Shown here in pieces: positions 10,087-63,470 of a DNA stretch of 64,000 nucleotides; position 1 is the stretch's first letter, and the number at the start of each line of letters is the position of its first letter. The position numbers and the translations under genes were made by a program. Under the pieces are notes generated by a model. The model did no database searches and had not been told where the DNA came from. It saw only the letters and a list, made by a program, of their open reading frames with translations. The DNA lies in contig CAXHZK010000013.1 of NCBI GenBank assembly GCA_964021915.1, positions 18-64,017 of the forward strand, read 5' to 3'. The stretch is from an uncultured Roseobacteraceae bacterium. Lineage in GTDB: Bacteria; Pseudomonadota; Alphaproteobacteria; Rhodobacterales; Rhodobacteraceae.

Positions 10087-10129
10087 GTTTCTGCTTGGAT
10101 ATTTGGCAAACTCGGCGCAGGATCATGCT

Positions 10130-11757: not shown

Positions 11758-11914
11758 CGGTTTACTTCCACGCGGTTGCACAATTCGGCGATCCTTTGCC
11801 AGTTTGACAGAGCATATCAAAGATCACTGCCCTGTTATCGCTTATCAATTGGCAATACGCCAGTTTGCCCTCATATCTACTGTTAACACCGTTCCAAGGA
11901 CGTAAGGTTTAAAT

Positions 11915-12517
11915 ATGAAATATCTTAAGACACTCGCTCTCTCTGCTGCGTTGAGCATCGCTGCATTGCCCGCAATGGCCGAGCAACTTTCGCTCGACGA
12001 GATTTCACAGTTTTTAAATGGCCTGCAAACAGCGCAGGGCGATTTCACGCAAATCAACAGCGATGGAACGCTTTCAACGGGGCGGCTGTTTCTCAAACGT
12101 CCTGGCCGCATCCGGTTTGAATATAATGCGCCAGATAATTCACTGGTCATGGCTGGCGGTGGTTCGGTCGCTGTATTTGATCCACGGTCCAACAACGGGC
12201 CAGAGCGCTATCCGCTGCACCGCACCCCGCTCAAAATTATACTGGAACGCAATGTTGATCTTGCCAAGGCGCGCATGGTGACGGGCCATTCATCCGATAG
12301 CACATCAACAACTGTCACCGCCCAAGATCCGGACAACCCGCAATACGGAAATATTCAGTTGGTTTTCACCAGCAGCCCAATTGAATTACGTCAATGGATT
12401 GTGACCGATGATGTCGGTGATCAGACGGTCGTGATCTTGAATGACCTAGAAGCCGGAATCCCGATCGCCGACGCAAAGTTTAGCATTCTTGGCGAAATCG
12501 CCAGCAGGGAACAATAG
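11915..12517 (+). CDS. lolA: Outer-membrane lipoprotein carrier LolA family
   Basis: Signal peptide, GDFTQ, LKRPGRIRFEY, TPLKIIL, LRQWIVTD. Confidence 0.88.
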   Translation: MKYLKTLALSAALSIAALPAMAEQLSLDEISQFLNGLQTAQGDFTQINSDGTLSTGRLFLKRPGRIRFEYNAPDNSLVMAGGGSVAVFDPRSNNGPERYPLHRTPLKIILERNVDLAKARMVTGHSSDSTSTTVTAQDPDNPQYGNIQLVFTSSPIELRQWIVTDDVGDQTVVILNDLEAGIPIADAKFSILGEIASREQ

Positions 12518-12527
12518 TGTCAACGAT

Positions 12528-12551
12528 AGGGGCGTCGCATAAGACGCCCCT
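12528..12551. terminator. Hairpin between convergent genes
   Basis: aggggcgtc-gcataa-gacgcccct, perfect 9-bp stem. Confidence 0.7.
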
Positions 12552-12558
12552 GAGCTAT

Positions 12559-13143
12559 CTAAATTTTGCGGCAGGAGCGCAGCTGAGCATCATACATAAT
12601 AGCGCGTGAATCGACTTCGTTCGCAATACGGACGAGCCAGCTTTTGCTCCGCCAAGTGCCTCGTTTATATCCCGTGCGGCCGTCGTGATAGGCGAGGTAT
12701 TGGTTGCGCGTGTCGAATAGTTGAACGCCTACCTCTTCTCGGGTTTGGGACATGTACCAGCCCATAAAATCAGCGGCATCGTAAATATCATCGCGCCGCG
12801 CGCCAAATCCGCCCTCTTTTTGCTGGTAATCTTTCCAAGTGCCATCTAGCGCTTGGGAATAACCAAATGCAGAGGACTGGCGCCCCATCGGGATCACACC
12901 TAACGCATATTGATAGGGGGTCCGGTTGTTGCCGATGAATTTACTCTCTTGGTAAATGATCGCCATGACGACGGGAATAGGAACGCCCCATTTCCGCTCA
13001 GCGGCCCTAAATGCCCGGAGATATTTCGGACGCTCATCCAAAATAGAACACGCATTTTCGAGATTGCGCGGGGCCGAAAACTCTCTGGAACCACAGCTGG
13101 CAACGGCCAGCAGCAGTACCGCTACTCTTAGAAATCTGCTCAT
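12559..13143 (-). CDS. Lytic transglycosylase (SLT-like) lipoprotein
   Basis: Lipobox LAVASC, IIYQESKF catalytic Glu, SSAFGYSQA, YLAYHDG. Confidence 0.85.
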   Translation of the reverse strand: MSRFLRVAVLLLAVASCGSREFSAPRNLENACSILDERPKYLRAFRAAERKWGVPIPVVMAIIYQESKFIGNNRTPYQYALGVIPMGRQSSAFGYSQALDGTWKDYQQKEGGFGARRDDIYDAADFMGWYMSQTREEVGVQLFDTRNQYLAYHDGRTGYKRGTWRSKSWLVRIANEVDSRAIMYDAQLRSCRKI

Positions 13144-13220
13144 TTGCTCTTACCCTTAGGGGTTATTTTTAAGCAGCATAGCCCAATAATTTGCATGTGG
13201 GAACCATGATGGTGCTTTTG

Positions 13221-14102
13221 CTAGATCACAAATGCCAGAATGAGCGGCAATGTGATCACGCTCAGCAACGTCGATGAGACGACAAGCCCTGCTACGACTT
13301 GTGCCTCATGCCCGTATTTTTCGGCCAATAGATAAGATGTAACGGCAACGGGGGTGGAAATTTGAACGATCAACACCGCTGTTGGGACAGCGCCCAACTC
13401 GAAATAGAGCGCTACGCCAGCCGCAGCGCCAGCGCATATGATGGCCTTGGACACCGACAATGCGACAGCGGTCCAGATGTCTTTGACATGCAGCCGTGCT
13501 ACCGCAACCCCAAGCGTGATCAACATCAAGGGGATGGCCATTTGCCCCGTCAATTCAAGCGCATTGGTTAGGGCCACTGGTGTTTGCCACCCTTGCCAAA
13601 GAAATAGCGCCCCAAGGAATGTCGCGGCGACAACCGGTTCCTTGAATGCGCGGATGATCGACCCACCACCAGACACGACCCAAACCCCGATTGTGAATGA
13701 CAGGATCGCCATGACAGCGAAAACGACAACCGCATATCCCAAACCTTCTGTGCCAAACGCAAAAAGCGCCAGCGGCAGGCCGAGGTTGCCCGTGTTGCCG
13801 AAAACAAGCGGTGCTAAGTAGGTCGCGATGGACAGGCGAAAAAAAAGAATAAGCACACCAAAGACCAATGCGATCAGCGCATATGTGGCAAAACTAGCAA
13901 GGCTCAGCGCCGCCAACGCCTCGGGCGCGATATCGGTATTCATCAGGGCCACAAATATCAGACAGGGCACAGAAACTGTCATCGCCAGTCGCGTCACAAA
14001 CTGCATCGGATAGTCAAACCCCATGCGCACCCAAATATATCCAATCGTAGCCAAAACAAAAACGGGTGCCGTAATATTCAACACTGTAAGGGCAATGATC
14101 AC
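13221..14102 (-). CDS. AEC family transporter
   Basis: Multi-TM protein with GNTGNLGLP and STPVAVTSYLLA. Confidence 0.9.
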   Translation of the reverse strand: MIIALTVLNITAPVFVLATIGYIWVRMGFDYPMQFVTRLAMTVSVPCLIFVALMNTDIAPEALAALSLASFATYALIALVFGVLILFFRLSIATYLAPLVFGNTGNLGLPLALFAFGTEGLGYAVVVFAVMAILSFTIGVWVVSGGGSIIRAFKEPVVAATFLGALFLWQGWQTPVALTNALELTGQMAIPLMLITLGVAVARLHVKDIWTAVALSVSKAIICAGAAAGVALYFELGAVPTAVLIVQISTPVAVTSYLLAEKYGHEAQVVAGLVVSSTLLSVITLPLILAFVI

Positions 14103-14180
14103 AGACTGTTTCCTTTAATCTGGGTGGCGGGCCATGGACACAGACCGCAAATCGCGGCTATGAAGAACCAAGGGAGTGCT

Positions 14181-14507
14181 ATGTTTAAAAAGCGTGCAAA
14201 ATATGCGTTAGGTCAAGTGGTCAAGCACCGCAAACATCCTTTTCGGGGTGTTGTATTTGATGTCGACGCAATGTTTTCCAACACCGAAGCATGGTATGAT
14301 GCAATCCCCGAGGACGCGCGCCCAGCCAAAGACCAGCCGTTTTATCACCTGCTCGCTGAAAATGATCAAAGCTACTACGTGGCCTATGTATCAGAGCAAA
14401 ACTTGATCGCTGACTATTCTGGTATCCCGGTTGAACACCCGGATCTGGACGATTTGTTTGGTCCATTCGAGGATGGGCAGTATCCGCTTCAGGTTCAATT
14501 GAACTAA
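14181..14507 (+). CDS. hspQ: Heat shock protein HspQ
   Basis: GQVVKHRKHPFRGVVFDVD, QPFYHLLAEN, YVSEQNL; GGGAG RBS. Confidence 0.95.
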   Translation: MFKKRAKYALGQVVKHRKHPFRGVVFDVDAMFSNTEAWYDAIPEDARPAKDQPFYHLLAENDQSYYVAYVSEQNLIADYSGIPVEHPDLDDLFGPFEDGQYPLQVQLN

Positions 14508-14642
14508 GCGTCAGCCTGCGTTTGCACCTGCAATTGGGCCTCGTGATTTTTGCAATTCCTCAAAACTATTCCATTTTGCACCGAATTGATGGATGCTGGT
14601 CCAAATACGCGGCCACAACATTCAATGCGAGAGCGTAATCAC

Positions 14643-15182
14643 ATGACCAAGCCAGTAACATATGACCGGATTTCCCGCCTGAACCATTGGATCATCGCGC
14701 TCGCAATGATCGGCATGCTGGCGGTGGGGCTATATCTTGAATTTGGCGGGCTTGATCGTAACGCAAAGCGGCCTTTGCTGAACATTCACCGGTCTGTCGG
14801 TGTGTTGGTTCTGATCTTTGGCGCCTGGCGGGTCGCTTACCGGATCAAGCAGGGCTTTCCGCCGCCTGCATCAACTAGTGGCCCCGCTTGGCAAGAACGG
14901 GTGGCCAAGTGGATGCATTGGGCCTTGCTTGCGGGGATCATCATCATGCCGGTGTCTGGTATCGCCATGACCGTGTTTCGCGGTCGTGCGGTTGATGTGT
15001 TTGGATGGTTTGCCATTCCAGCACAGGCAAAAAATGATCTGCTCGTGTCTATTGGATCGAATGTGCACGGTGCCGCAGGCAAGCTTATTGCGCTTTTAGT
15101 GATCGTGCACCTGTTGGCCGCGATTAAACACCACGTCGTTGATAAGGACGCGACACTGCACCGGATGATACGCGGGGGCTAG
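14643..15182 (+). CDS. Cytochrome b561 family protein
   Basis: SRLNHW, HRSVG, HWALL..MPVSG, HLLAAIKHH heme ligands. Confidence 0.92.
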   Translation: MTKPVTYDRISRLNHWIIALAMIGMLAVGLYLEFGGLDRNAKRPLLNIHRSVGVLVLIFGAWRVAYRIKQGFPPPASTSGPAWQERVAKWMHWALLAGIIIMPVSGIAMTVFRGRAVDVFGWFAIPAQAKNDLLVSIGSNVHGAAGKLIALLVIVHLLAAIKHHVVDKDATLHRMIRGG

Positions 15183-16756
15183 TACCCCAACGCGCAACCG
15201 TCCTTGCGCGGGTCAGATCCGCCAATCAGCACGCCATCATCGTTAAGCTGGATAGCCTGCGCGCCACCGATGGCTGTTGCAGGGATTTGCACATCATGCC
15301 CGAGATCGGCCAATCCTTGCCTTGTGCTATCGGCATAGCCACGTTCGACATTCAGCACTGCACCATCAGCAAAGCAACGCGGCGCGTCGATTGCTGCCTG
15401 CACATCCATGTCAAAATCGGTCAGGTTGCTAATGAAACGGGCATGGCCCGTTGATTGATATGCACCACCCATCACACCAAATGGCATGTATGGCTTTCGG
15501 TCTTTCTTCAAAAGCCCCGGGATGATCGTATGCATTGGGCGTTTGCCTGCTCCGGCCTCGTTCGCGTGTCCGGCCTCAAGCGTGAAGCCCGCGCCTCTGT
15601 TCTGAAGGAGGATGCCGTATTTGTCGCTCGCGATGCCACTGCCGAATGAATGGAACACGGAATAGATCAGCGATACGCACATCCGGTCCTTGTCCACGAC
15701 AGTGATATAGATGGTATCTTTGTGTACGGCCTCTGCGCCGGGCAGGGACGCGGCCAATGCTTTATTTGGGTCAATAAGAGCGGCAAGCTGTTTGGCCGTA
15801 TCCATTGACAGCATGTGGTCTAACCGCTCCATGTGATCCATGTCAGCGACAAAGCGGTTTCTTGCATCATATGCCAGCTTGGTGGCTTCGGCCTCGATAT
15901 GCGCACGCTGAACGCCAAATGGGTCCATACCCGCAATATCAAATTGCTTGAGCATGTTGAGAATGAGAATGGCTGTTGCGCCTTGTCCGTTCGGCGGATG
16001 CTCCCACAGGTCCAGCCCGCCGTAACCGCCGGAAATCGGGGCTGTATAGTCACAGGCCGTATTCGCAAAGTCATCGAGCGTATGAACGCCGCCCATTGCA
16101 TTCAGGCTGCGCACCATATCCTCGGCGACTTCGCCCTCATAAAACGCGTCCCTTCCGTCCAGCGCGATGCGGCGCAACACCTCTGCTTGTTGTGGCGCGC
16201 GAAAAACCTGTCCTGTCTGGGGCGTTTTCCCATTCAACAGGTAGAAATTTTTGGCCACGCCCTGCAAGCGGTCGGTCGCCTCTGCCCAATCATCTGCAAC
16301 CCTTGGGGCTACGGGAATACCCGCCTCGGCGTAATGAATTGCTGGCGCTAATGACGCTTTTAATCCCAGTTTTCCAAAGTCCCGCGAAAGGGTGCAAAAT
16401 GCGTCAACAGCACCGGGGATGGTTACTGCCTCTGGCCCGTTCAATGGCACTGCCGTCAGGCCCTGATCCCGCATTTTCGCAGCATCCATACCCGCAGGCG
16501 CGCGACCTGACCCATTCAGCGCAACAACACGATCTTCGCCAGCTGGTGACAACAAGACGAAACAATCACCACCAATGCCAGTCATTTGTGGTTCAGCAAT
16601 GCCGAGCAACACGGCCCCCGCAATTGCAGCATCTACAGCGTTCCCGCCTGCTTCTAATATTTGCACAGCAACTTTTGCGGCCAGCGGATGCGACGTCGCG
16701 CACATGCCATTGGTTGCATAAGTCGCGGATCGGCCGGGCAGGTGGAAGTCGCGCAT
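15179..16756 (-). CDS. ggt: Gamma-glutamyltransferase family protein
   Basis: GGNAVDAAIA, EPQMTGIGGD, DTIYITVVD nucleophile Thr, KRPMHTIIP, GSDPRKDG. Confidence 0.93.
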   Translation of the reverse strand: MRDFHLPGRSATYATNGMCATSHPLAAKVAVQILEAGGNAVDAAIAGAVLLGIAEPQMTGIGGDCFVLLSPAGEDRVVALNGSGRAPAGMDAAKMRDQGLTAVPLNGPEAVTIPGAVDAFCTLSRDFGKLGLKASLAPAIHYAEAGIPVAPRVADDWAEATDRLQGVAKNFYLLNGKTPQTGQVFRAPQQAEVLRRIALDGRDAFYEGEVAEDMVRSLNAMGGVHTLDDFANTACDYTAPISGGYGGLDLWEHPPNGQGATAILILNMLKQFDIAGMDPFGVQRAHIEAEATKLAYDARNRFVADMDHMERLDHMLSMDTAKQLAALIDPNKALAASLPGAEAVHKDTIYITVVDKDRMCVSLIYSVFHSFGSGIASDKYGILLQNRGAGFTLEAGHANEAGAGKRPMHTIIPGLLKKDRKPYMPFGVMGGAYQSTGHARFISNLTDFDMDVQAAIDAPRCFADGAVLNVERGYADSTRQGLADLGHDVQIPATAIGGAQAIQLNDDGVLIGGSDPRKDGCALGY

Positions 16757-16843
16757 GATTGACCCTCTATTGGTTGCAACCGCAACATTAGGCGGTTCGA
16801 ACTTTGTTGCAATCGAAAAAGAGAATGTATCGGAGAGCTTTGC

Positions 16844-16889
16844 TCGGCACCGTGCAACTGGGTGGGGGCTATGAAGTGCACGGTGCCGA
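16844..16889. repeat. Intergenic 13-bp perfect inverted repeat (REP-like hairpin)
   Basis: tcggcaccgtgca (16844-16856) and tgcacggtgccga (16877-16889), 20-nt loop. Confidence 0.7.
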
Positions 16890-17053
16890 AGTAAGCATTT
16901 ACTCGCTACAGTTATCGTTTTGAGCTCTGAAAACGGCAGACAAATGATGGAATTGTGACCCTTTCGGGGCATTTCACAATTAGAGCCAATTGACAGTTGT
17001 GCTGTAGGAAAAGAACATGTGTTCAATTCCTTTCGCACAAAACGGGGTATTCC

Positions 17054-18211
17054 ATGGAAAAAGTCGCAATCACAGGAGCAGCGCGCACCCCCATGGGGGG
17101 ATTTCAGGGTGTTTTCGCCGAAGTAGATGCATCTGTTCTTGGTGGAGCTGCAATAAAATCGGCCATGATCGGTGCAGGCATATCAACCGCGGATGAGCTC
17201 CTTATGGGGTGCGTGCTTCCGGCGGGGCAGGGGCAAGCGCCTGCGCGACAGGCAGGATTCGCCGCAGGGTTAGGGCAAGATGTGCCGGCAACCACGGTCA
17301 ACAAGATGTGCGGGTCCGGCATGAAAACGACCATGATGGCATTTGACCAAATCGCGTTGGGCACAGCGACAACGATTGTTGCTGGTGGGATGGAAAGCAT
17401 GACAAATGCGCCTTACCTGATGCCCAAAATGCGCGGTGGCGCGCGCATTGGCCATGCCCAAGTCGTTGATAGCATGTTTCTTGATGGCCTTGAGGACGCA
17501 TATGACAAAGGGCGCTTAATGGGCACATTTGCCGAGGATTGCGCCGACCATTATCAATTCACCCGCACCGCACAGGACGAATACGCCCTGACATCCTTGT
17601 CCAACGCATTGGTCGCCGAACAAAGCGGGGCCTTTGCCAATGAAATTTCGCCAGTCACGTTCAAAACGCGCAAGGGTGAGATTGTAATTGATCGCGATGA
17701 ACAGCCATCAAAGGCACGGCCTGAGAAAATACCCAACCTCAAACCTGCGTTTCGCCAAGATGGCACTGTGACCGCTGCGAATGCATCGAGCATTTCCGAT
17801 GGTGCTGCTGCATTGGTTCTGACGAGCGACCCGCAATCACCTGTGCGCGGGTATATTTTGGGCCACGCCAGCCATGCACAAGCGCCGGGATGGTTCACTA
17901 CCGCGCCCGTGCCTGCCGCGAAAAAGCTGTTGGACCGCATCGGTTGGGCGGTCGAGGATGTTGACTTGTGGGAAGTGAACGAGGCCTTTGCAGTGGTGCC
18001 CATGGCCTTTATGGCCGAGATGGGCATTTCGCGTGATAAGATGAACGTGAATGGCGGCGCAACTGCGCTGGGCCACCCGATAGGCGCATCGGGAACGCGC
18101 ATCATCGTAACACTGCTCAACGCACTGGAAAGTCGCGGGCTCAAACGTGGGATAGCTGCCATTTGCATCGGTGGTGGCGAAGGCACAGCAATCGCTATAG
18201 AGCGCCCCTAA
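17054..18211 (+). CDS. Acetyl-CoA C-acyltransferase (thiolase)
   Basis: NKMCGSG, NEAFA, GHPIGASG, CIGGGEG. Confidence 0.95.
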   Translation: MEKVAITGAARTPMGGFQGVFAEVDASVLGGAAIKSAMIGAGISTADELLMGCVLPAGQGQAPARQAGFAAGLGQDVPATTVNKMCGSGMKTTMMAFDQIALGTATTIVAGGMESMTNAPYLMPKMRGGARIGHAQVVDSMFLDGLEDAYDKGRLMGTFAEDCADHYQFTRTAQDEYALTSLSNALVAEQSGAFANEISPVTFKTRKGEIVIDRDEQPSKARPEKIPNLKPAFRQDGTVTAANASSISDGAAALVLTSDPQSPVRGYILGHASHAQAPGWFTTAPVPAAKKLLDRIGWAVEDVDLWEVNEAFAVVPMAFMAEMGISRDKMNVNGGATALGHPIGASGTRIIVTLLNALESRGLKRGIAAICIGGGEGTAIAIERP

Positions 18212-18236
18212 CAATAGGCATCTGCAGGAGAAATTG

Positions 18237-18695
18237 ATGCGCGTGAATTACCAGCTTCTTACTCAGACAATCGCGTCGTTGACCGAAGGCGAGGATGACG
18301 CAGTTGCGCTAATGGCCACGGTTGCTTGCGAAGTGCACCACTCTGATGATCGGTTCGACTGGACTGGGTTCTACCGTGTCACTGGACCTGAATTGCTCAA
18401 GATTGGACCATATCAAGGTGGGCATGGCTGTTTGCAAATCCCGTTCTCACGCGGCGTTTGTGGTGCTGCAGCGACAACCCGAAAGGTGCAGTTGGTTGAT
18501 GACGTGGAAACATTCGCAGGCCATATCGCCTGTGCATCATCGACACGATCCGAATTGGTTTTGCCAGTTCTGACCTCTGACGGCGCCTTGCTCGGTGTTT
18601 TTGACATCGACAGTGATCAACCCGCTGCCTTTACCGCTGAAGACGCCGAACAACTGCAATCCATTTTATCTGCGGTTTTTGCCTACGCCCGTTGA
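18237..18695 (+). CDS. msrC: GAF-domain free methionine-R-sulfoxide reductase
   Basis: DWTGFY, IGPYQG, GVCG, HIACASSTRSELVLP, DIDS. Confidence 0.85.
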   Translation: MRVNYQLLTQTIASLTEGEDDAVALMATVACEVHHSDDRFDWTGFYRVTGPELLKIGPYQGGHGCLQIPFSRGVCGAAATTRKVQLVDDVETFAGHIACASSTRSELVLPVLTSDGALLGVFDIDSDQPAAFTAEDAEQLQSILSAVFAYAR

Positions 18696-19819
18696 CGGTC
18701 GTTTTGGGCCTCCAACGCCGAATAGAACCGCTCACGCGGCCAATCCTCTGCGATGGCCTGACGGAATAACGCCGCCTGCGTCTGAGGGGCAAGTCCGCCA
18801 ACTGGTGGATCACGGTCAAGGTTCGTCGGAAACGAATAGCCTTCGGCACATGCCGCAATTGCAGCGGCCTGATCGGCGCTGGACATATCTGATACCTGCA
18901 TAGCCGGATACATAGCCTTGCACATGGCAACCCTGTCGATCGTTTCCATCGCGCGCCCGAACGCCGATGACACCTGCAATAGATTGGCCATACGCTGGAC
19001 ATCCGCACTCTCATTCGCGCCAGCAGCATGAAATAATGCGGGGCTAAAGAATAATGCATCCCCTTTTGCCAATGGCAATTGGATGCAGTTGGCTTCAAAA
19101 TAGTCGCGAAAATCCGGCCTGCGCCATGCCGCATACCCTGCCAGATATGCCTGACTGAACGGCAACAATTTAGTGGGCCCGCTTTCAACCGGCATGTCAG
19201 TATGTGCCACGGCACCCTGTAGCGTCAGGGCAGGTGATAATGCATGCACATGTGACGGATAGGTCGACGAAACATCGTCAGTTTGGAATCCAAGATGATA
19301 ATCCCTATGCGCCTGCTGTGCCGCACCACCGGGGCGCACCAAATTCACCTGTGACGTCATCTGATAGTTCGGGCCGAGCCACGCCTCGCTTATCGCGGCA
19401 ATGGAAGTATTTCCGAAATATAACGCAAAAACATCGGGTGCTCTTAGGCACAGTTTTTGAAGGGAATTCCAAATTCGGGCATTATTGCCTGCCGCTGAAA
19501 AATGATCCGCTGCGGCATGATCGGCCTCATCTTGGATAATCTGCTCAAAAACGGCGGTCGCTGCATCAATCGGCTGTGTGTCTGCATATGCACCCCTTAG
19601 CACCACGATACCGGATCCCTGGCCAATGTTGGTGGCCCATTCTGCCAACAGATTTGACCGACCTTGGGGAGTGATCAAATCGCACTGTGCGACATCGTAA
19701 ATCGGTACGTTTTGCGCAATCTCATGTGCATGCGGCACGTCTTCAGGGGCAAGGGACTGTGCGCATAGGCTTTGGAATTCGCTCAAGTCGCATGATTGGG
19801 CTGTGTAATATGTCGTCAT
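18683..19819 (-). CDS. PhyH-family Fe(II)/2-oxoglutarate dioxygenase
   Basis: QQAHRDYH (HxD), GPTKLLPFS, FHAAGAN and a downstream Arg. Confidence 0.88.
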   Translation of the reverse strand: MTTYYTAQSCDLSEFQSLCAQSLAPEDVPHAHEIAQNVPIYDVAQCDLITPQGRSNLLAEWATNIGQGSGIVVLRGAYADTQPIDAATAVFEQIIQDEADHAAADHFSAAGNNARIWNSLQKLCLRAPDVFALYFGNTSIAAISEAWLGPNYQMTSQVNLVRPGGAAQQAHRDYHLGFQTDDVSSTYPSHVHALSPALTLQGAVAHTDMPVESGPTKLLPFSQAYLAGYAAWRRPDFRDYFEANCIQLPLAKGDALFFSPALFHAAGANESADVQRMANLLQVSSAFGRAMETIDRVAMCKAMYPAMQVSDMSSADQAAAIAACAEGYSFPTNLDRDPPVGGLAPQTQAALFRQAIAEDWPRERFYSALEAQNDRQRA

Positions 19820-54596: not shown

Positions 54597-54668
54597 ATAT
54601 TTATTCAAATTGCGGACACATTTCATTCGTAAACCTTGCTCAACGGTATGAGAAAAAGGAACGACGCT

Positions 54669-56039
54669 GTGAATATTATGCTAGACAATGGCTGCCACCA
54701 TTTCGAAGCGGCAACACCAGTAAAAAGTAACATCCGCCTTGTTTCGGACAACAATGCTAAAAAAGCAAAGTTCGAGAACATCGCAATCATTGGTTTGGGT
54801 TATGTGGGATTGCCACTCGCTGTTTGTTTAGCAGACAAATTCGAAGATGTACGCGGCGTTGATATCTCTGAGCGGCGTGTTGGCGAAATCAAAAACGGTT
54901 TCGACTCTACGAATGAGATCAGCAAATCCGAGCTTGAGACTTCTGGACTTTCCGTCAGCACCGATATGTCGACGTTAACGAACGCGTCTTTTTATGTAGT
55001 GACCGTACCGACACCTATTACCGACAGCCACCAGCCTGACCTTTCTCCTTTGCAGTCCGCATGCGACATGATCGGACCATACCTCAAGCGTGGCGATGTC
55101 GTTGTGTTTGAATCAACCGTTTACCCCGGCGTCACAGAAGATTTCTGTGCTCCTATTTTGGAAAAGCACTCTGGCCTAAAAGCAGGCGAACAATTTGGTT
55201 TGGGATATAGCCCAGAGCGGATTAACCCTGGCGACAAGGTGAATACAGTTCAAAACGTGATCAAGATTGTTTCCGGTGACACTCCAGAGACGCTCGAGCG
55301 TGTAAAAGCAGTTTATAACACTGTCATCAAAGCAGGCCTTCACTCTGCAACCAGCATCAAAGTTGCTGAAGCGGCTAAGGTTTTGGAAAATACACAGCGT
55401 GACATCAACATTGCATTGATGAACGAAATGTCGATGATTTGCGACAAAATCGGCGTAGATACCCGTTCCGTTATCGAAGCTGCCGATACAAAGTGGAATT
55501 TTGTGCCATTCACACCTGGTTTGGTCGGCGGACACTGCATCGGTGTCGACCCATATTACCTTGCTTCACTTGCTGATAAGGTTGGCCACCACCCGCAGGT
55601 TATCCTTGCTGGTCGCCGGACAAATGATGGCATGGTTGGCCACATCGGTGACGCTGTTATGCGCCGTATGATTGAAACTGGTAAGCCTATGCGCGATCTT
55701 CGGATTGGTATTTTCGGCGTCACTTTCAAGGAAAATGTGCCAGACATTCGCAATTCTAAATCTGCTGAGCTTGTTGAAACAATCAAGGGTTACGGTCTGT
55801 CACCGATGGTACACGACGCTCATTGTTCGGCTGATGTTGCCAAGATGGTCAACATCGACCTGACATCCCAAGACGAGATGGGCGACTTGGATGTTATGAT
55901 CCTTGCAACGCCACATGCGGAATATTCCAACGATCCTAAATTCTTGGACCACCTGCGTAAGGGCGGCATCTTTATTGATGTGCGTGGTGTATATCGGAAT
56001 GATGCGCGCGCTGAAGATTTCGTGTACTGGTGCCTTTAA
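54669..56039 (+). CDS. tviB: UDP-N-acetylglucosamine 6-dehydrogenase (TviB/WbpO/CapL class)
   Basis: GLGYVGLP, TVPTP, ESTVYPG, YSPERINPGD, KVLENTQRD, GGHCIGVDPYYL, TFKENVPDIRNS; GTG after an AGGA RBS (ATG 54678 alternative). Confidence 0.85.
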   Translation: MNIMLDNGCHHFEAATPVKSNIRLVSDNNAKKAKFENIAIIGLGYVGLPLAVCLADKFEDVRGVDISERRVGEIKNGFDSTNEISKSELETSGLSVSTDMSTLTNASFYVVTVPTPITDSHQPDLSPLQSACDMIGPYLKRGDVVVFESTVYPGVTEDFCAPILEKHSGLKAGEQFGLGYSPERINPGDKVNTVQNVIKIVSGDTPETLERVKAVYNTVIKAGLHSATSIKVAEAAKVLENTQRDINIALMNEMSMICDKIGVDTRSVIEAADTKWNFVPFTPGLVGGHCIGVDPYYLASLADKVGHHPQVILAGRRTNDGMVGHIGDAVMRRMIETGKPMRDLRIGIFGVTFKENVPDIRNSKSAELVETIKGYGLSPMVHDAHCSADVAKMVNIDLTSQDEMGDLDVMILATPHAEYSNDPKFLDHLRKGGIFIDVRGVYRNDARAEDFVYWCL

Positions 56040-56057: not shown

Positions 56058-57701
56058 ATGTTTGCTATTACGCCGATCGGGTCTTGTCGTATCACGACCC
56101 CGCTTAAACGCGGACAAGAGAAATTTGGCTTCCATCTCAACATGGATCGTTGCTACGGCTACTGTCATTCACCGGCAGAGGCTGTTCAAATGGCAAGGTT
56201 CATGTTGGGGGAAATCTCTATTCCGGCTGATGTTTGGCCGCTGGTATCACGTTCGCATACCCTTTCTGCCGCCGAAGCCACCTTTCATTCACTATCTAAC
56301 TTATATGTTGTTGAGCTTGCCTCAGCAAAAGAAGTTACCGTCGACGGCGTATCCGTTCAGCTGAACTATCTAAATTCTGCATTTTCGGCGTTTTTTGCCG
56401 ACAAAACGCGCGCACAAGTTTTTTGGGATCTCGCCGAAAACGGATCTGACGATAAAAAAGCCCAATTTTTGGCGGCTGAATGGTCAGCAACGCCTGAACA
56501 GATCGCCGATGCTCAGATGCTTCAACGCCTAAAGATGAAGCGGGTTACGCAAGAGAGCCTTGAGCGTGATCTCTTGGTTCTCAAACAATTGCTTCCCAAT
56601 TTACTGGTTGTGTCTCACGTGAATGCCTGCAAACCAGATGGTCGCGCAATTGCATCTCGTTCCCAATTTATTGACATGGTTTTTGAGGCCACGAATGCCG
56701 TTCAGGTACCGTTTGATAACCCAACGCAGCTGATGGACGTCTATGGCCAAGCATTCGCAATCGAAGATGAGAGCACTGGATTGGCTCATTTTACGGATGA
56801 ATTCGGCGCCGCACTTATGCAGCATTGGGTTCGGACGTTTGTCGCGCCGTTAGACAGCGGTGTAGGGATAATCGAAAAAAGTACGACTGAAGCCTTCGAT
56901 CAAGCGGTTTCCGACGCACTTGGCGGTGCGTTTGATGAATTTACGAATTCATCATTGTTAATGCAGGCCGGGGATCTGGGAGCATTTGATCAGGCGCAAA
57001 AACTGGCTGAACAACGAACCGTTTCAATGCCAAAGTTTCTCGCGATGCCATTGGCTAAGCAAGCGGCAGATCAAGGTAATTTTGAAGCGGCGCTCGCGTT
57101 TGCAGCACCATTTTTGCAGCAAAATGATACCGCTGCAGTGCGCTTGTCAGTGATTATTTGGCACAAAATGCGTGGTCTTTCCATTGACATGAATGCCGAC
57201 CTGGATGCCATAATTGAAAGTTGGAGCGCCACGACAGCGGATTGCGCCGAGCTAAATCAGCGAATTTCTGACCTTGATATGATTCTTCGGATCAAGCCCA
57301 AGCACGGCCCGACGCGCCGCGCGATGCAGGCTGCGAGAAAAGAACTGGTTACGATTATCCGCGAGGCTGGAGCGAACCGCGATCTTGCCACTTTGGACGG
57401 GTTGGCGCCGTTTGTTGATTCGCTCCAAACGACCGTGGCGGACCTAAGTCTTTGGCGTGCTCGGGTTAATTTCCAGCTGGGTTTTGACGAAGCGGCGTTG
57501 AAAATTGGACAACAGGCAGTTGCTGAACTTCCCGATAACATTAATTTATGGGTGCTTCTTATGCGCGCGGCCAAGCGTTCATCGGAGCAAGAAAAGTCGC
57601 TACATTTCGCAAAAAATGTTGTGCGGTTGGCAAAGCCAGAGAATGAAAACCTACGCATCGAGGCGCAAACTGTGTTAGACGGAAGTTCAATAGGTGCGTA
57701 A
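56058..57701 (+). CDS. tviD: TviD-like polysaccharide O-acetyltransferase (SGNH-type N-domain, helical/TPR-like C-domain)
   Basis: MFAITPIGSCRITTP, YGYCHSPAEA, VELASAK, QLNYL, SHVNA, SRSQFI, NPTQLMDVYGQ and LAHFTDEFG parallel the S. Typhi TviD N-terminus as I recall it. Confidence 0.72.
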   Translation: MFAITPIGSCRITTPLKRGQEKFGFHLNMDRCYGYCHSPAEAVQMARFMLGEISIPADVWPLVSRSHTLSAAEATFHSLSNLYVVELASAKEVTVDGVSVQLNYLNSAFSAFFADKTRAQVFWDLAENGSDDKKAQFLAAEWSATPEQIADAQMLQRLKMKRVTQESLERDLLVLKQLLPNLLVVSHVNACKPDGRAIASRSQFIDMVFEATNAVQVPFDNPTQLMDVYGQAFAIEDESTGLAHFTDEFGAALMQHWVRTFVAPLDSGVGIIEKSTTEAFDQAVSDALGGAFDEFTNSSLLMQAGDLGAFDQAQKLAEQRTVSMPKFLAMPLAKQAADQGNFEAALAFAAPFLQQNDTAAVRLSVIIWHKMRGLSIDMNADLDAIIESWSATTADCAELNQRISDLDMILRIKPKHGPTRRAMQAARKELVTIIREAGANRDLATLDGLAPFVDSLQTTVADLSLWRARVNFQLGFDEAALKIGQQAVAELPDNINLWVLLMRAAKRSSEQEKSLHFAKNVVRLAKPENENLRIEAQTVLDGSSIGA

Positions 57702-57704: not shown

Positions 57705-59654
57705 ATGGAACTTTTGTCAGAACAGTTGAATTTCAAACCAGAGGCAACTCTGGTGCCTTCAACGTTTTCTGATGAAATTTTCGAGGTGAGCCGCACCATT
57801 ACTGATCCCGAAGTTGCACGGCAGGTTTTTGAAAAGATCACGCCAATCATCCGGAAATACCGAGCGGATAAAAAGCTGGCCATCGCGTGCGGGCTTTTGA
57901 TTGAAAAGCAGCGAATTGGGACTGGAATGCGCGCGCTTTGGGATGATTTGCGGACCCGGTTCCCCGATGACATAACCGCGCTTCGGATGTTGATGCGTTG
58001 GTATCGACGCGATCAGAATGTTCCGGCTGGCATAAAACATATCGCCACCATGTTTCCGGAATGTTGGCGTGATTTGGCGCAAGCGGATCAAGCGCTTACC
58101 GGATTAGCAGAGCTCAAGGCATGGGATGAAGTCGACGAAATAATGCGCACAATTTTGGCGTTTCATCCGGCCGACCGTGCTATCCGCATGAAATATATAA
58201 AGATATTAAACGAACAGGCGCGCTATGTTGACGCTCAAAAGATTTCGACTGGCGTCGTGGGGCGTGACCGAATGGGAGCAGCGTCGCAAAAACTGCTGAA
58301 TTCGGTCGATGAACGTGCTAATACAATGCTGATGCTGGGATTAGAAAGTTCTTCAGATGTGATTTCCACGATTGTCGCCTTGGCGAATAATCCACGGAAA
58401 ACCACGTCTTCTGAAAACGTTGTGTTTTACACAGGCCAACTTGGCACTGGTGGTGCCGAAAGACAGATGACCCGCATCGCAACATCGTTTAAAAAACGGA
58501 TGGATGATGGGGATGACAACGGTCTATCGCCGCATGTTTGGGTCAAACACGCCAATGCGGCCAGCGGTGCTGACTTTTATCTGCCTATGTTGTTAGAAGC
58601 AGGCGTGAATACACGGGTTATCGCCGACGAGCCAAATGTTGCACTCGCGGATTTAACTGACATATCTGACGAACTTGCCGCGTTGATGAAGCTTCTTTCG
58701 CCAGATATTCTGAGCCAGACATGTTCACTGATCCCAATGTTTCGAGAACACAAAACGGATGTCGCGTATCTTTGGCAGGATGGCGGGATTGTGATGGCTG
58801 CACTCGCCGCGATTATCGCCGGCGTCCCACGGATTGTAACATCATTTCGGGGCCTGCCGCCCAACCTGCGCCCAAATCTCTACCGTGATGAGCAACCCGT
58901 ACTTTACGCAGCACTCGCTCGGTTGCCCTATGTCACATTCACGGCCAATAGCCAGAAATCCGCAACTGCTTATGAGGAATGGCTTGGGCTGGCCCCGGGA
59001 ACCGTAATTGCTGTTCCAAACGCTACACCTGCGATTTTGCCGGATGGCGATGACAGTGATGATGCGCTTTGGTCTGACATCACGAACCGCTCGCAGCCCT
59101 GTACGAAGACGGTTATCAGCGTGTTCCGGTTTGATTCAAACAAACGCCCAATTGAATGGGTGAACGCGGCGGCGCGATATTGCAAAAACCACGACGACAC
59201 ACGCTTTGTCATGATTGGTGGGGGCGCGCTATTTGGTGAATGCGAAGAGTTGATTGCTCAATTGGGCCTTCAGGATCGTATTTTCTTGACCGGCATTCGA
59301 AGCAATATCGGTTTTTACATGCATAAGGCAGACATGTTGCTACACCTTGCCCGCATGGAAGGCCTGCCGAACGTTTTGATCGAAGCACAACTCGCAGGAA
59401 CAGCCGTACTGGCAACACCCGCTGGCGGCACCGATGAAGTTGTGACTGATGGTGTATCGGCGCATATTTTGTCTGATTCAGACGTTTTGCCCGAAGATGA
59501 ACTTGATGCAATGTTGGCGAAAATGCTAACCGATGACGTGGCGTTGGCTGAAATGGGCCGCGTTGCAAAAGAACTCGCTGGCAATCGCTTCTCGGTCGAG
59601 ACGATTTTACGCCGCACAACTGACCTCTTTAAACAAATTCCACAGGACACCTAA
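57705..59654 (+). CDS. tviE: TviE-like GT4 polymerase with N-terminal TPR-like region
   Basis: TGQLGTGGAERQ, WQDGG, AGVPRI..FRGLPP, VFRFDSNKRP, EGLPNVLIEAQ, TPAGG match TviE-type motifs. Confidence 0.8.
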   Translation: MELLSEQLNFKPEATLVPSTFSDEIFEVSRTITDPEVARQVFEKITPIIRKYRADKKLAIACGLLIEKQRIGTGMRALWDDLRTRFPDDITALRMLMRWYRRDQNVPAGIKHIATMFPECWRDLAQADQALTGLAELKAWDEVDEIMRTILAFHPADRAIRMKYIKILNEQARYVDAQKISTGVVGRDRMGAASQKLLNSVDERANTMLMLGLESSSDVISTIVALANNPRKTTSSENVVFYTGQLGTGGAERQMTRIATSFKKRMDDGDDNGLSPHVWVKHANAASGADFYLPMLLEAGVNTRVIADEPNVALADLTDISDELAALMKLLSPDILSQTCSLIPMFREHKTDVAYLWQDGGIVMAALAAIIAGVPRIVTSFRGLPPNLRPNLYRDEQPVLYAALARLPYVTFTANSQKSATAYEEWLGLAPGTVIAVPNATPAILPDGDDSDDALWSDITNRSQPCTKTVISVFRFDSNKRPIEWVNAAARYCKNHDDTRFVMIGGGALFGECEELIAQLGLQDRIFLTGIRSNIGFYMHKADMLLHLARMEGLPNVLIEAQLAGTAVLATPAGGTDEVVTDGVSAHILSDSDVLPEDELDAMLAKMLTDDVALAEMGRVAKELAGNRFSVETILRRTTDLFKQIPQDT

Positions 59655-60668
59655 ATGAGAACTGTTTTTGTAACTGGCACCGCCGGATTTATTGGCTTTC
59701 ACCTCGCTCGTCACCTTCTTGATGAGGGGTTCAAGGTTGTCGGATTTGATGCTCTGACAGACTATTATGATGTTGAGTTGAAGAAATCCCGCCATGTCAT
59801 GCTTGAGAAAAACCCTAACTTCTCAGCACATATCGGACAGTTAGAGGACTATGATTTTCTGGCCAAGGTCGTGGCCGATGCGAACCCCGATGTGATTGTT
59901 CACCTCGCGGCACAGGCAGGTGTGCGGTATAGTTTGGAAAATCCGCGCGCTTATGTTGATACGAACCTGACAGGCACGTTCAACCTGATGGAAACGGCTC
60001 GTATTCAAAAAGTTGATCACCTGCTGATGGCATCAACGTCGTCCGTTTATGGCGGCAACACGCAAATGCCATTTGAAGAAACGCAAAAAACCGAGCTGCC
60101 GTTGACGCTCTATGCCGCGACTAAAAAGGCGAACGAGGGCATGGCGCATTCCTATTCGCACCTGTGGCATATTCCGACCACGATGTTCCGCTTCTTTACG
60201 GTTTATGGGCCGTATGGTCGCCCCGATTTGGCGCTATTCAAATTTGTAAAAGCGGCCATCGCGGATGAGCCGATTGACGTCTACAACCACGGAAAAATGG
60301 CACGCGATTTTACCTATGTTGATGATTTGGTGCACTCGATCCGCTTGTTGGTGGATACAGTGCCACCCATGCCGAATGCCGACGCACCAAAGATCGAGGG
60401 TGACAGTTTGAGCCCAGTTGCCCCGTTCCGCACAATGAACATCGGCAACGGCGCGATTGTTCCATTGATGGATTTCATTGACGAAATTGAAAACGCGCTT
60501 GGCAAACCAATCAAGAAAAACATGATGGAAATGCAAAAAGGCGATGTGCCTGGCACATGGGCGAATACCGATCTATTGGAAACATTGACCGGCTACCGGC
60601 CCAATACACCGGTAAAAGAAGGTATTCGGCGGTTTGTCGAATGGTATCGCGACTATTACAAAGTCTAG
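59655..60668 (+). CDS. UDP-uronate 4-epimerase (LpsL/CapI/GAE-type extended SDR)
   Basis: GTAGFIG, AAQAGVRYSLENP, LYAATKK, FFTVYGPYGRPD, QKGDVPGT. Confidence 0.92.
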   Translation: MRTVFVTGTAGFIGFHLARHLLDEGFKVVGFDALTDYYDVELKKSRHVMLEKNPNFSAHIGQLEDYDFLAKVVADANPDVIVHLAAQAGVRYSLENPRAYVDTNLTGTFNLMETARIQKVDHLLMASTSSVYGGNTQMPFEETQKTELPLTLYAATKKANEGMAHSYSHLWHIPTTMFRFFTVYGPYGRPDLALFKFVKAAIADEPIDVYNHGKMARDFTYVDDLVHSIRLLVDTVPPMPNADAPKIEGDSLSPVAPFRTMNIGNGAIVPLMDFIDEIENALGKPIKKNMMEMQKGDVPGTWANTDLLETLTGYRPNTPVKEGIRRFVEWYRDYYKV

Positions 60669-60671: not shown

Positions 60672-61469
60672 TTGATAACCACACCAGCACATATCACACC
60701 GCCTGACACATTGGGCCGTATTGGTATCCTTATGGAAAGGGAGCTGAAAACGCGCTTTTCGGGGGGGGCTCTTGGTTACCTTTGGGCATTTATAACCCCG
60801 ATGGTTTGGATCGGGTTTGTCGTTGTCCTGTTTTGGGTCCTTGAGCGTGTTCCCCCAATTCATGTTGGCGCCGAAATTTTCGTCGCCACCGGCATTTTGC
60901 CTTACATCTTTTTTAGGCAAACTGTTTCGGCGCTCGGTCGTTCTATTCCGTCACAACGGTACATGCTGTATCTGCGGCCTGTCCAAACCAATGACATCTT
61001 GACTGCCACGATGTTGTTAGAAGGTTTCAATGCCGTAATTACTGCAATCGTTGTATTGGCGGGCATCACGCTCGTATTCGGTGTGAAGTTGCCTGCTTCA
61101 TTCGCAAATCTTTTGATGTGTCTGGTAATGGCGTGGTTGTTTGGCTGTGGTGTTGGACGATTTACAGCGGCGCTCGGGTTGATCAGTGACAGTTTTGCAC
61201 GTTCGGTTCCATTGATCTTGCGACCCATGTTCTGGCTATCCGGTATTTTCTATACCGCTGCAGAACTGCCGGAACAGGCGCGTGATCTGTTATGGTATAG
61301 CCCATTGCTTCATATCGTAGAGTTGACCCGAGAAGCATATTTTATCGGCTATGTTTCACCAATTTCCACTGCGCTTTATCCGTTGGGCGTAACTGCAATA
61401 TTCTTCCTCGTGTCGATCCCAATTGAGCGGTTCGCAAATAAGCGGCGCATTACGCGGCATCGATTATGA
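60672..61469 (+). CDS. vexB: Capsule ABC-2 permease, VexB-like
   Basis: RELKTRF, GILPYIFFR, LRPMFWLSGIFYTAAELP, SPLLHIVELTRE; 265 aa, TTG start. Confidence 0.75.
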   Translation: MITTPAHITPPDTLGRIGILMERELKTRFSGGALGYLWAFITPMVWIGFVVVLFWVLERVPPIHVGAEIFVATGILPYIFFRQTVSALGRSIPSQRYMLYLRPVQTNDILTATMLLEGFNAVITAIVVLAGITLVFGVKLPASFANLLMCLVMAWLFGCGVGRFTAALGLISDSFARSVPLILRPMFWLSGIFYTAAELPEQARDLLWYSPLLHIVELTREAYFIGYVSPISTALYPLGVTAIFFLVSIPIERFANKRRITRHRL

Positions 61470-62146
61470 TAAAACTTCACGATGTAAGCATTTTTAGACC
61501 CGGAATTCGGCCAGGTGACCCGATATTGCTCAATGCAAATACGAGGTTTGGTACGGGTGAGCGTATCGGCATTTTGGCAAAAATTGGCACGGGCAAATCA
61601 TCCATTGCGCGGATGCTGTCGGGGGTGGATGAGCCGGATCAAGGCCATGTCGAACGTCAGGGCCGTGTTAGCTGGCCCATTGGCTTTGCAGGTTTTCTGC
61701 ATCCAAATTTGACGGTTGCCAAGAACCTAGAATTTTTCGCCCGTCTCATCGGCATGCCGGTTGAGCAAGTCATCGATTTTTGCGACGAATTTTGCCAGCA
61801 ACCCGGACTACTTTCGAAATTTGTAAAAGACCTTACACCGACCCAACGCGCAATGTTGTCCTATAGCTGCGCTATGGTTGTTGACACGCCAACCACCTAT
61901 ATCGCTGATGAGGTTATTGCGGTCGGAGTCGCTTCAGATCGTGAGAGATGTGACGAGGTGCTGTTTGAGCGTCTTCAAACAGGTGGATTGGTATATTTGT
62001 CGCGAAATATCAGGCAGATCGAACGCTATTGCGACCGCTATTATGTTTTTATCAACAATCGTCTTATTCCGTGCGATGATTTAGTTGCTGCGCAACGCGC
62101 ACTTGACCGCACTACGACACAGCCCAAAGAGCAAGAAAATGTCTGA
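61466..62146 (+). CDS. vexC: Capsule ABC ATP-binding protein, VexC-like, with degenerate motifs
   Basis: IGILAKIGTGKSS, SWPIG, YIADE, PCDDLVAA. Confidence 0.72.
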   Translation: MIKLHDVSIFRPGIRPGDPILLNANTRFGTGERIGILAKIGTGKSSIARMLSGVDEPDQGHVERQGRVSWPIGFAGFLHPNLTVAKNLEFFARLIGMPVEQVIDFCDEFCQQPGLLSKFVKDLTPTQRAMLSYSCAMVVDTPTTYIADEVIAVGVASDRERCDEVLFERLQTGGLVYLSRNIRQIERYCDRYYVFINNRLIPCDDLVAAQRALDRTTTQPKEQENV

Positions 62147-63470
62147 TCCGCAAACACCCGAAGAAAAAGAAGCGATCCGAATTGCAGCGTGGCGCGCCGA
62201 GCGTGCACGCATTGCAGAAGCAGAAAAGGCAGAAAGGGTTGCGCAAAAGGCAGCCGAAAAAGAAGAATCTGCAAGAGCCGTTGAGGCCCAAACAGAACAA
62301 GCAACGCAAGACTTATTGTCCAAAGCCGCGCTTGCAGATCGGAACATTGGAAAATCAGCCAATATAAAACGACCTCGGTTCATGTCGCGGGTCAGCTTGA
62401 TTTTTCGAGTATTGATCATCGTGATTTTGCCATTTGTGGCAGCGACCTATTATCTATTCTACGTCTCGACCCCGCTCTATGAGGCGCAATCTGTGATCGC
62501 TATTTCCAAGTCGGATAGCGGCGGGAATAATAGCAGTTCGGGTGTTTTGGGGGGCATGCAGCGCTCCGCAAACCTTTCTGAGATGTTCCGTGCACACGCC
62601 TATATCCGAAGCCAGGCGCTGATGGATGCCCTTGAACTGGAAACAGGCTTTGTAACGGAATTTAGTAGCGAAGCGCTTGACCCCATAAGCCGGCTGCGTG
62701 ACATCAACTTTTTGTCTATTAGCAAGTTGATGCAGTTTGATCGCTTTGTGGAATCGACGGTGGATCTTCAAAGCGGCCTCTTGACCCTATATGTTCGGGC
62801 ACCAACGCAAGACCATGCAATCAAAATTTCGCGCGCGGTCCTCAACGAAACAGCCGTTCAGGTGAATGTTTTGGGGCAAGAAATATTTGATCAACGCCAA
62901 GCCCACGTGTCTGATGCACTAAAGTCTGCACAAGAACAGCTGTCGCAAGCCCAAGCTGACCTCGTTTCATTGCAAATCGAATATCAGGAAGCCGACCCGC
63001 GCAATCGTGTGGAAAGCATTTATACGACGATCCGTGATTTGGAGGCCCAAGCCCAAGAACTTAGTAGCACAATCCAGACCGCTCAGATTTCGGGTGTTGG
63101 CAGCAGCCCACAAACGGTGCAAGCCATCGCACTGGAGGCCCGTATTCGCGAGAGAATTGAAACCGAAAGGGGGCGCCTTGTTGAACCAGCAGGGGATGGG
63201 GAAGTATCTTTAAATACGTTATTGATTGAGTTTGAACTTGCGAGCCTCAATGTAGGGCTAGCCCAAGACGCTGTCAGAACGGCTCTTGGGGCGCAATCAC
63301 GGGTCGGACAAGAGGCGGCGCTCAATCGCAGTTTGTTTCAGATTGTCGTGCCCCCGCGGACTGCAGCAACCCCAATTTATCCAAAAATTCCAAGTTCGCT
63401 TGCTCTTGTATTGCTAGTCTCGCTAATGATTTTGGCCACTATGTCTCTATTTCGGACACGGACTTATTGA
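62139..63470 (+). CDS. vexD: Capsule export polysaccharide co-polymerase (PCP-3), VexD-like
   Basis: Charged N-terminal extension (RIAAWRAERARIAE), TM, VDLQSGLLTLYVRA, ADPRNRVESIY, C-terminal TM. Confidence 0.78.
   Translation: MSDPQTPEEKEAIRIAAWRAERARIAEAEKAERVAQKAAEKEESARAVEAQTEQATQDLLSKAALADRNIGKSANIKRPRFMSRVSLIFRVLIIVILPFVAATYYLFYVSTPLYEAQSVIAISKSDSGGNNSSSGVLGGMQRSANLSEMFRAHAYIRSQALMDALELETGFVTEFSSEALDPISRLRDINFLSISKLMQFDRFVESTVDLQSGLLTLYVRAPTQDHAIKISRAVLNETAVQVNVLGQEIFDQRQAHVSDALKSAQEQLSQAQADLVSLQIEYQEADPRNRVESIYTTIRDLEAQAQELSSTIQTAQISGVGSSPQTVQAIALEARIRERIETERGRLVEPAGDGEVSLNTLLIEFELASLNVGLAQDAVRTALGAQSRVGQEAALNRSLFQIVVPPRTAATPIYPKIPSSLALVLLVSLMILATMSLFRTRTY

Follow-up and report, generated by a model that had tools for sequence, protein, structure and literature searches.

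A UDP-glucuronate 4-epimerase-type enzyme in the place of TviC in a Vi-like operon of a Roseobacter-group bacterium

The DNA analyzed here, hereafter the window, is a stretch of 64,000 nucleotides (nt) from an uncultured Roseobacteraceae bacterium (assembly GCA_964021915.1, contig CAXHZK010000013.1) and covers nearly the whole of this 64.1-kb contig, C13. It carries a Vi-like operon in which the slot of the epimerase TviC is occupied by an epimerase of another type. We found this replacement to be real, conserved, clade-wide and reciprocal with TviC-type enzymes. Judged by its sequence, the replacing gene is a member of the UDP-glucuronate 4-epimerase family (Gla/LpsL/UGAepi, here called Gla type) and lies outside the TviC/WbpP family. 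We consider it probable that this non-orthologous epimerase supplies UDP-GalNAcA (GalNAcA, N-acetylgalactosaminuronic acid), which would be polymerized to a Vi-like acetylated polymer, this being the most economical pathway.

Family membership of the epimerase

The epimerase and its motifs, all on the forward strand, are as follows.

59655..60668: extended short-chain dehydrogenase/reductase (SDR) 4-epimerase of the UDP-glucuronate 4-epimerase family, in the TviC slot; 337 amino acids (aa)
Residues 7-14 of this open reading frame (ORF): TGTAGFIG, the NAD site (VTGTAGFIG, residues 6-14)
59907..59945 (residues 85-97): AAQAGVRYSLENP motif, the Arg of which aligns with R88 of BcUGAepi
60033..60044 (residues 127-130): STSS, the catalytic Thr and two Ser of the carboxylate-binding network, from alignment to 6ZL6
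60108..60128 (residues 152-158): LYAATKK, the catalytic YxxxK, from alignment and motif position
60204..60227 (residues 184-191): YGPYGRPD, in which R189 aligns with Arg185 of BcUGAepi

An earlier inspection of the letters of the DNA (the sequence-only reading) had named the AAQAGVRYSLENP, LYAATKK and YGPYGRPD motifs, and all three are present at these positions. In BcUGAepi, R88 binds the alpha-phosphate (PMC11519531), the Thr/Ser network binds the carboxylate of the substrate, and Arg185 holds the carboxylate of UDP-galacturonic acid (UDP-GalA) (PMC12338863). Aligned to 6ZL6, the window epimerase keeps the catalytic T128, Y153 and K157 together with the carboxylate binders S129, S130, T182 and R189. 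In the numbering of BcUGAepi, the carboxylate network comprises T126-S127-S128 and T178.

Pfam places the protein among generic extended SDRs (Epimerase and GDP_Man_Dehyd, E of ∼1e-50). Among solved structures it matched 5U4Q with an E value of 5.6e-113 (54% identity), BcUGAepi with 2.8e-45 (32.5%) and MoeE5 with 2.1e-32, while GalE, WbgU and WbpP were weaker matches at 1e-25 to 1e-28 (WbpP, 6.6e-25). Given these scores, and given that about 29 related loci have this gene at the corresponding position, the resemblance is not due to chance. The 5U4Q structure, from Klebsiella pneumoniae, was deposited in the Protein Data Bank as a "dTDP-glucose 4,6-dehydratase."

The NCBIfam TviC model, NF011728, gave the window epimerase 100.5 bits against a cut-off of 760, whereas the TviC/WbpP-type protein of locus L040, whose identity is 65% to WbpP and only 27.8% to the window epimerase, reached 377 bits. 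Together with the 54% identity to 5U4Q, this agrees with the proposal of the sequence-only reading that TviC has been replaced by a UDP-glucuronate 4-epimerase-type enzyme. The motifs AALGSVPRS and PYAVTK, present in the genuine TviC types of L040 and of Caballeronia locus L105, are absent from the window epimerase, again as that reading had claimed. The window protein has AAQAGVRYS, LYAATKK and RPDLALFKF, and it has no DPxGAYAAVIPKW insertion.

Phylogeny, where a position inside the TviC/WbpP clade would have contradicted the proposal, gave the same picture as the profile scores. The window epimerase stood apart from the TviC/WbpP types on long separate branches, clustered with paralogues adjoining Ugd, and fell into a well-supported clade of 27 in-locus copies from Rhodobacterales. 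Other copies branched elsewhere, among them TviB-adjacent copies, the Ugd-adjacent L075 (64% identical to the window epimerase), and sphingomonad and Roseomonas copies. Paralogues beside Ugd served in this comparison as a stand-in for Sinorhizobium meliloti LpsL.

In public records, Gla-type genes are named "GDP-mannose 4,6-dehydratase" or generic epimerase. Plasmids, too, encode Gla-type epimerases 63-68% identical to that of the window, in 268 records that include 58 from Phaeobacter and 12 from Sulfitobacter; many of them bear the label "GDP-mannose 4,6-dehydratase," probably a misannotation.

Distribution of the replacement and pairing with TviB

Taking TviD as the diagnostic Vi gene, we scanned a TviD alignment against one genome per species and obtained 42 TviD-marked loci, in Rhodobacterales, Sphingomonadales and Roseomonas. 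The TviD of the window has 81 relatives in a large protein database, all with Pfam PF27354 and nearly all from Rhodobacterales. Gla-type epimerases were placed in the TviD-marked loci as follows.

About 29 of the 42 loci: immediately following tviE, which is the arrangement of the window, with gaps of -4 to +64 nt
2 loci (L029/L095 and Croceicoccus L089): abutting tviB
2 loci (L026 and L035): 3-4 kb upstream of tviB
2 loci (Roseomonas): with the vex genes on one side and a second gene for a TviE-like glycosyltransferase on the other

Whole-genome searches detected a Gla type and no TviC type in 37 of the 38 other TviD-marked genomes. The remaining genome, from Sphingomicrobium, lacks a Gla type and has a TviC type that resembles WbpP, with 65% identity to 1SB8; its locus is otherwise that of an ordinary sphingomonad, with TviB 55-58% and TviE 41-44% identical to those of its Gla-type-using neighbors. 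No TviC-type epimerase was found in the window locus or in the rest of its genome. The epimerase is also the best-conserved gene of the locus, with identities of 65-88% across about 30 genomes compared to 40-62% for TviD; in Litoreibacter, identities to the window proteins are 87% for the epimerase, 69% for TviB, 63% for TviE and 46% for TviD. The complete chromosome of Marivivens G021 (2.9-Mb genome) carries three Gla-type copies (L026, L096 and L084), two of which are near-identical and separated by 20 kb around the Vi-like locus, the third adjoining a short-type Ugd gene.

The complete betaproteobacterial Vi-like locus L105 of Caballeronia sp. M1242 (replicon NZ_CP071132.1, 10690-24867) consists of tviB-tviD-tviE-vexA-vexBCD, a gene for a tetratricopeptide repeat (TPR) protein, a TviC-type SDR gene and a polysaccharide lyase family 1 (PL1) gene, and its TviB is 50% identical to that of the window. 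All L105 genes bear generic names in the annotation of the Prokaryotic Genome Annotation Pipeline; the PL1 lyase is like the VexL of work on Achromobacter.

The pairing of the two enzymes extends beyond the Vi-like loci. Among 301 evenly drawn Alphaproteobacteria, a class-wide survey counted 133 with TviB-type dehydrogenases, 197 with Gla-type epimerases and 4 with TviC types, 2 of these strong. The distance between a TviB-type and a Gla-type gene was at most 200 bp in at least 15 genomes and at most 3.5 kb in at least 8 more. We inspected 12 such pairs, from genomes of 37-69% G+C and many different families, and saw no tviD, tviE or vex gene nearby. The TviB/Gla-type pair is thus a free-standing precursor module that is not special to Vi-like loci.

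In the dehydrogenase tree, the three dehydrogenases with TviC-type partners (from Sphingomicrobium, Caballeronia and genome G156) nested in well-supported Gla-partnered clades, so that the function of the dehydrogenase is probably the same with either partner. The dehydrogenase of the window is 50% identical to TviB types partnered with true TviC-type epimerases. Judged from this tree, repeated exchanges of the epimerase partner left the dehydrogenase undivided. At locus L114 (G113:C5, 9588-13080), genes for a short-type Ugd, a Gla-type epimerase and a TviB-type dehydrogenase stand in a row; this position of the epimerase, between dehydrogenases of both kinds, hints that it may take two substrates.

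Proposed pathway and competing explanations

We propose that the gene encodes an NAD-dependent extended-SDR C4-epimerase that would do the job of TviC of Salmonella. The TviB-type dehydrogenase would oxidize UDP-N-acetylglucosamine (UDP-GlcNAc) to UDP-N-acetylglucosaminuronic acid (UDP-GlcNAcA). The epimerase would then oxidize C4, the 4-keto intermediate would rotate with its carboxylate gripped by Thr-Ser-Ser/Thr and then by Arg189, and reduction from the opposite face would yield UDP-GalNAcA. This donor would be polymerized by the single TviE-like glycosyltransferase of family 4 (GT4), and the polymer would be O-acetylated by the TviD-like enzyme and exported by VexBCD and an outer-membrane exporter whose gene lies elsewhere. 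The presence of one dehydrogenase, one epimerase and one glycosyltransferase fits a linear pathway with a single donor and a homopolymer. We infer both the substrate, UDP-GlcNAcA, and the polymer, an acetylated poly-GalNAcA; the epimerase may keep activity on UDP-glucuronic acid (UDP-GlcA) too. The sequence-only reading had left two options, UDP-GalNAcA made by another route or an acetylated poly-GalA; the former is the one we favor, and the latter is retained below as a rival.

A broader claim stands about evenly balanced in our judgment: that the UDP-GlcA epimerase family is a second, unrecognized family of UDP-GlcNAcA 4-epimerases, possibly with dual activity, which together with TviB types forms the main route to UDP-GalNAcA in Alphaproteobacteria, a class nearly devoid of TviC/WbpP types, and that true Vi-type capsules of acetylated poly-GalNAcA are widespread in the marine Roseobacter group. 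According to the sequence-only reading, Staphylococcus aureus CapI belongs to the same subfamily and is encoded with the TviB-like CapL in the GalNAcA-containing type 1 capsule locus; if true, this pair is the only precedent with sugar chemistry. Acinetobacter baumannii Gne2, considered as a Gla-like precedent, was rejected, since the paper gives it 73% identity to WbpP.

Several observations weigh against UDP-GlcNAcA as the substrate. Our literature search found no member of the family shown to act on it, and the Bacillus cereus cytotoxis enzyme reportedly does not use it. The scatter of in-locus copies over the epimerase tree implies that the Gla-type family was recruited several times. Characterized members are carboxylate-needing UDP-GlcA epimerases that mostly reject or barely use non-uronate UDP-sugars (PMC7984243). 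No active-site signature parts the in-locus copies from the Ugd-linked housekeeping copies, which fits either a family-wide ability to use UDP-GlcNAcA or a plain UDP-GlcA function. The in-locus copies do show 14 clade-specific positions (for example, PLTL-Y versus QMSF-Y before the catalytic Tyr, and L192 versus M), which we rejected as a diagnostic signature because TviB-adjacent copies of other clades and 5U4Q do not follow them. Moreover, a Ugd gene in the genome (contig C1, 94942-96306) makes UDP-GlcA available, and the same holds for nearly all related genomes; a search for locus-bearing genomes without Ugd, which would have ruled out a supply of UDP-GlcA, does not discriminate, almost every one of them having a Ugd of the long or the short type. 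Only one TviC-type genome underlies the reciprocity seen among TviD-marked loci.

Two divergent loci also count on this side. L036 (uncultured Rhodobacteraceae, 9953-19538) and L038 keep tviD, tviE and vexBCD in genomes without any TviB-type gene; their TviD is short (∼285 aa) and has no TPR, and their TviE is ∼34% identical to that of the window. In L036 the epimerase lies within the locus, and with no TviB gene genome-wide it cannot there use a TviB product. These two loci form a divergent subtype and are candidates for a GalA-based or otherwise different polymer. Downstream in L036, NeuA/NeuC/NeuB-like genes appear to be present, judged by N-terminal sequence only.

Such observations leave room for a rather unlikely alternative: an ordinary UDP-GlcA 4-epimerase fed by the housekeeping Ugd, with a polymer made partly or wholly of GalA (a pectin-like galacturonan bearing acetyl groups) and with a TviB product left unepimerized, for instance as a GlcNAcA terminus or second residue. 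The close similarity to 5U4Q and to the Ugd-adjoining paralogue L075, with identical active-site motifs, speaks for it, as do the Ugd in the genome, the two loci from TviB-free genomes (one with its epimerase in place) and the fact that all characterized family members act on UDP-GlcA. It further gains from the Roseomonas loci, where Ugd and TviB genes accompany that of the epimerase and two for TviE-like glycosyltransferases. However, it leaves unexplained why TviB and Gla-type genes abut in at least 15 unrelated alphaproteobacterial genomes with Ugd elsewhere, and why the only TviD-marked genome without a Gla type has a TviC type. Many genomes have a second, sometimes Ugd-linked, copy for the supply of UDP-GalA, and two donors are hard to square with a single glycosyltransferase. 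The Roseomonas loci themselves (L092/L093 and L045/L046) encode a Ugd-like protein, a TviB type, a Gla type, two TviE-like glycosyltransferases, VexA and VexB/C, which suggests a heteropolymer of two uronic sugars.

It is improbable that the TviB-type dehydrogenase instead oxidizes UDP-glucose (UDP-Glc) or is promiscuous; the pair would then form a whole UDP-GalA module, with an O-acetylated polygalacturonan as its product. The recurrent pairing with a UDP-GlcA-type epimerase speaks for such an explanation. Yet the dehydrogenase scored 380 bits on the TviB model, compared to 211 on the model for UDP-N-acetylmannosamine (UDP-ManNAc) dehydrogenase and 32-154 on those for UDP-Glc dehydrogenases. 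Its nearest structures are N-acetylhexosamine dehydrogenases (Cap5O, E of 5e-58, and other UDP-ManNAc/GalNAcA dehydrogenases), with UDP-Glc dehydrogenases at ∼1e-25. It nests with dehydrogenases partnered by WbpP/TviC types, nuclear magnetic resonance in the Bordetella paper (PMC8760489) gives the product as UDP-GlcNAcA, and L114 has a separate short Ugd beside the pair. That the protein does not act as a 4-epimerase here (it might instead be, say, a UDP-uronate decarboxylase or 4-keto reductase), or that the polymer does not need it, is very improbable: although the reaction cannot be fixed from SDR sequence alone and BcUGAepi variants that lose the Arg185 contact decarboxylate (PMC12338863), every residue tied to epimerization is kept, including Arg189, and the gene is the most conserved of the locus across about 30 genomes.

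For the favored route from UDP-GlcNAcA to UDP-GalNAcA, the consequences reach beyond this locus. A second enzymatic route to the Vi sugar is likely, the swap being the rule across Alphaproteobacteria. The current rule for reading glycan loci takes a WbpO/TviB type with a WbpP/TviC type to mean GalNAcA, and Ugd with Gla to mean GalA (Cunneen et al. 2013, PMC3682973). Production of UDP-GalNAcA by a TviB/Gla-type pair would mean that many O-antigen, exopolysaccharide and capsule loci of Alphaproteobacteria have wrong sugar predictions or none, and the pair would be a natural test case for tolerance of the C2 substituent in a well-studied epimerase scaffold. Should the polymer be an acetylated galacturonan, the TviE/TviD machinery would gain a new class of product. 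Neither Vi-like loci nor GalNAcA polymers of the Roseobacter group, nor TviB/Gla-type modules, came up in our literature search. Previously described in Salmonella, Citrobacter and Burkholderiales, TviD/TviE systems now extend to abundant marine bacteria, among which harmless cultured carriers (Litoreibacter arenae DSM 19593, L. halocynthiae DSM 29467, Antarctobacter heliothermus DSM 11445 and Maliponia aquimaris CECT 8898) provide hosts for the study of this machinery.

Locus layout and comparison with known systems

The operon comprises seven co-oriented, close-packed ORFs at 54.6-63.5 kb, in the order tviB-tviD-tviE-epimerase-vexB-vexC-vexD. Besides the epimerase, these are the following, all on the forward strand.

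54636..56039: TviB-type nucleotide-sugar 6-dehydrogenase, predicted UDP-GlcNAc 6-dehydrogenase (Pfam UDPG_MGDP_dh N, central and C domains; NCBIfam TviB, 380 bits)
56058..57701: TviD-like O-acetyltransferase with an SGNH-like N-terminal domain and a short helical/TPR tail (NCBIfam TviD, residues 1-256, 170 bits, E of 6e-50)
57705..59654: TviE-like GT4 glycosyltransferase, putative polymerase (NCBIfam TviE models, 379 and 237 bits; Pfam Glycos_transf_1)
60672..61469: VexB/KpsM-like ABC-2 permease (NCBIfam VexB, 130 bits, and KpsM, 100 bits; Pfam ABC2_membrane)
61466..62146: VexC/KpsT-like ATP-binding cassette (ABC) ATPase (NCBIfam VexC, 81 bits)
62085..63470: VexD/KpsE-like PCP-3 protein, start uncertain, the ORF overlapping the end of vexC (NCBIfam BexC/CtrB/KpsE, 122 bits, and VexD, 93 bits)

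The best named NCBIfam matches of the neighbors are TviB, TviD, TviE, VexB, VexC and VexD, all under the equivalog cut-offs, which marks the locus as distantly Vi-like rather than orthologous to viaB. The TviE-like protein is the sole glycosyltransferase of the operon. The ATG of the epimerase follows directly on the TAA of tviE (0 nt), and vexB starts 3 nt past the epimerase stop; this gene spacing implies co-transcription, a link to the polymer genes on which the sequence-only reading depended. A promoter and terminator scan of the locus gave no signal above the shuffled background. The tviB ORF opens at a TTG at 54636, and its first ∼44 residues (54636-54770) align to no homologue; alignments begin at about residue 45, and translation probably starts at a site downstream of this TTG. 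The sequence-only reading had placed the start at 54669.

The genome comprises 2.68 Mb and is 95% complete; at the locus, its nearest relatives are Yoonia and Litoreibacter of the Roseobacter group. The G+C content of the locus is 0.44-0.51, compared to 0.53-0.58 in the left flank and mostly 0.52-0.56 in the contigs of the genome, a difference that would fit horizontal acquisition. The last gene of the operon is vexD, ∼600 nt from the contig end. On contig C5 (22314-26889), a kpsS-like gene (425 aa, Capsule_synth), an outer-membrane exporter gene and a kpsC-like gene (669 aa) lie side by side; the exporter is a lipoprotein of 378 aa with Poly_export and SLBB domains, 30% identical to a sphingomonad VexA. 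By analogy to what has been proposed for the Bordetella cap loci, these genes may supply the exporter and a beta-linked 3-deoxy-d-manno-octulosonic acid (beta-Kdo) lipid anchor for the Vi-like polymer. Contig C24 (846-3905) carries kdsA and a second kpsE-like and a second kpsT-like gene, which may form another set for capsule export, or else the rest of a group-2-like system split by the assembly.

The known UDP-glucuronate 4-epimerases (EC 5.1.3.6) include BcUGAepi (6ZL6/6ZLA), MoeE5 (6KV9), GlaKP of K. pneumoniae, LpsL of S. meliloti, Cap1J of Streptococcus pneumoniae and the plant GAE enzymes. With these the window enzyme shares the extended-SDR fold, TGxxGxxG, the Thr/Tyr/Lys residues, the Thr-Ser-Ser/Thr/Arg carboxylate "gripper" and the GVR(Y/T)S loop. 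It differs in standing beside a TviB-type (N-acetylhexosamine) dehydrogenase in a Vi-like operon rather than beside Ugd, and in its proposed substrate UDP-GlcNAcA, of which we found no report in the family.

The UDP-GlcNAcA 4-epimerases TviC, WbpP, WbgU and GnaB form "clade B" of Cunneen et al. 2013 (PMC3682973). The window enzyme resembles them in superfamily, in the proposed C4 epimerization of a UDP-uronate, in its TviB/WbpO-type partner and in its place in the pathway. It is unlike them in having only 28% identity, 100 versus 377 bits on NF011728, a separate branch and none of their signature motifs; the TviB partnership that it shares with TviC/WbpP types is a functional resemblance and not a sequence membership.

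At the level of the operon, the window locus agrees with viaB of Salmonella Typhi, Citrobacter and Burkholderiales and with Bordetella cap in having TviB, TviD, TviE and VexB/C/D homologues in one operon. In contrast to viaB, no tviA, tviC, vexA or vexE was seen in the window locus, with no search aimed at VexE or TviA. Furthermore, the TPR part of its TviD is much shorter (547 aa against the 831 positions of the TviD model), the outer-membrane exporter and kpsS/kpsC lie on another contig, and the epimerase is of another family. Like the cap loci of mammalian Bordetella, where kpsS and kpsC are in the genome and no vexE is seen (Wear et al. 2022, PMC8760489), the system described here is closer to the Bordetella cap arrangement than to Salmonella viaB.

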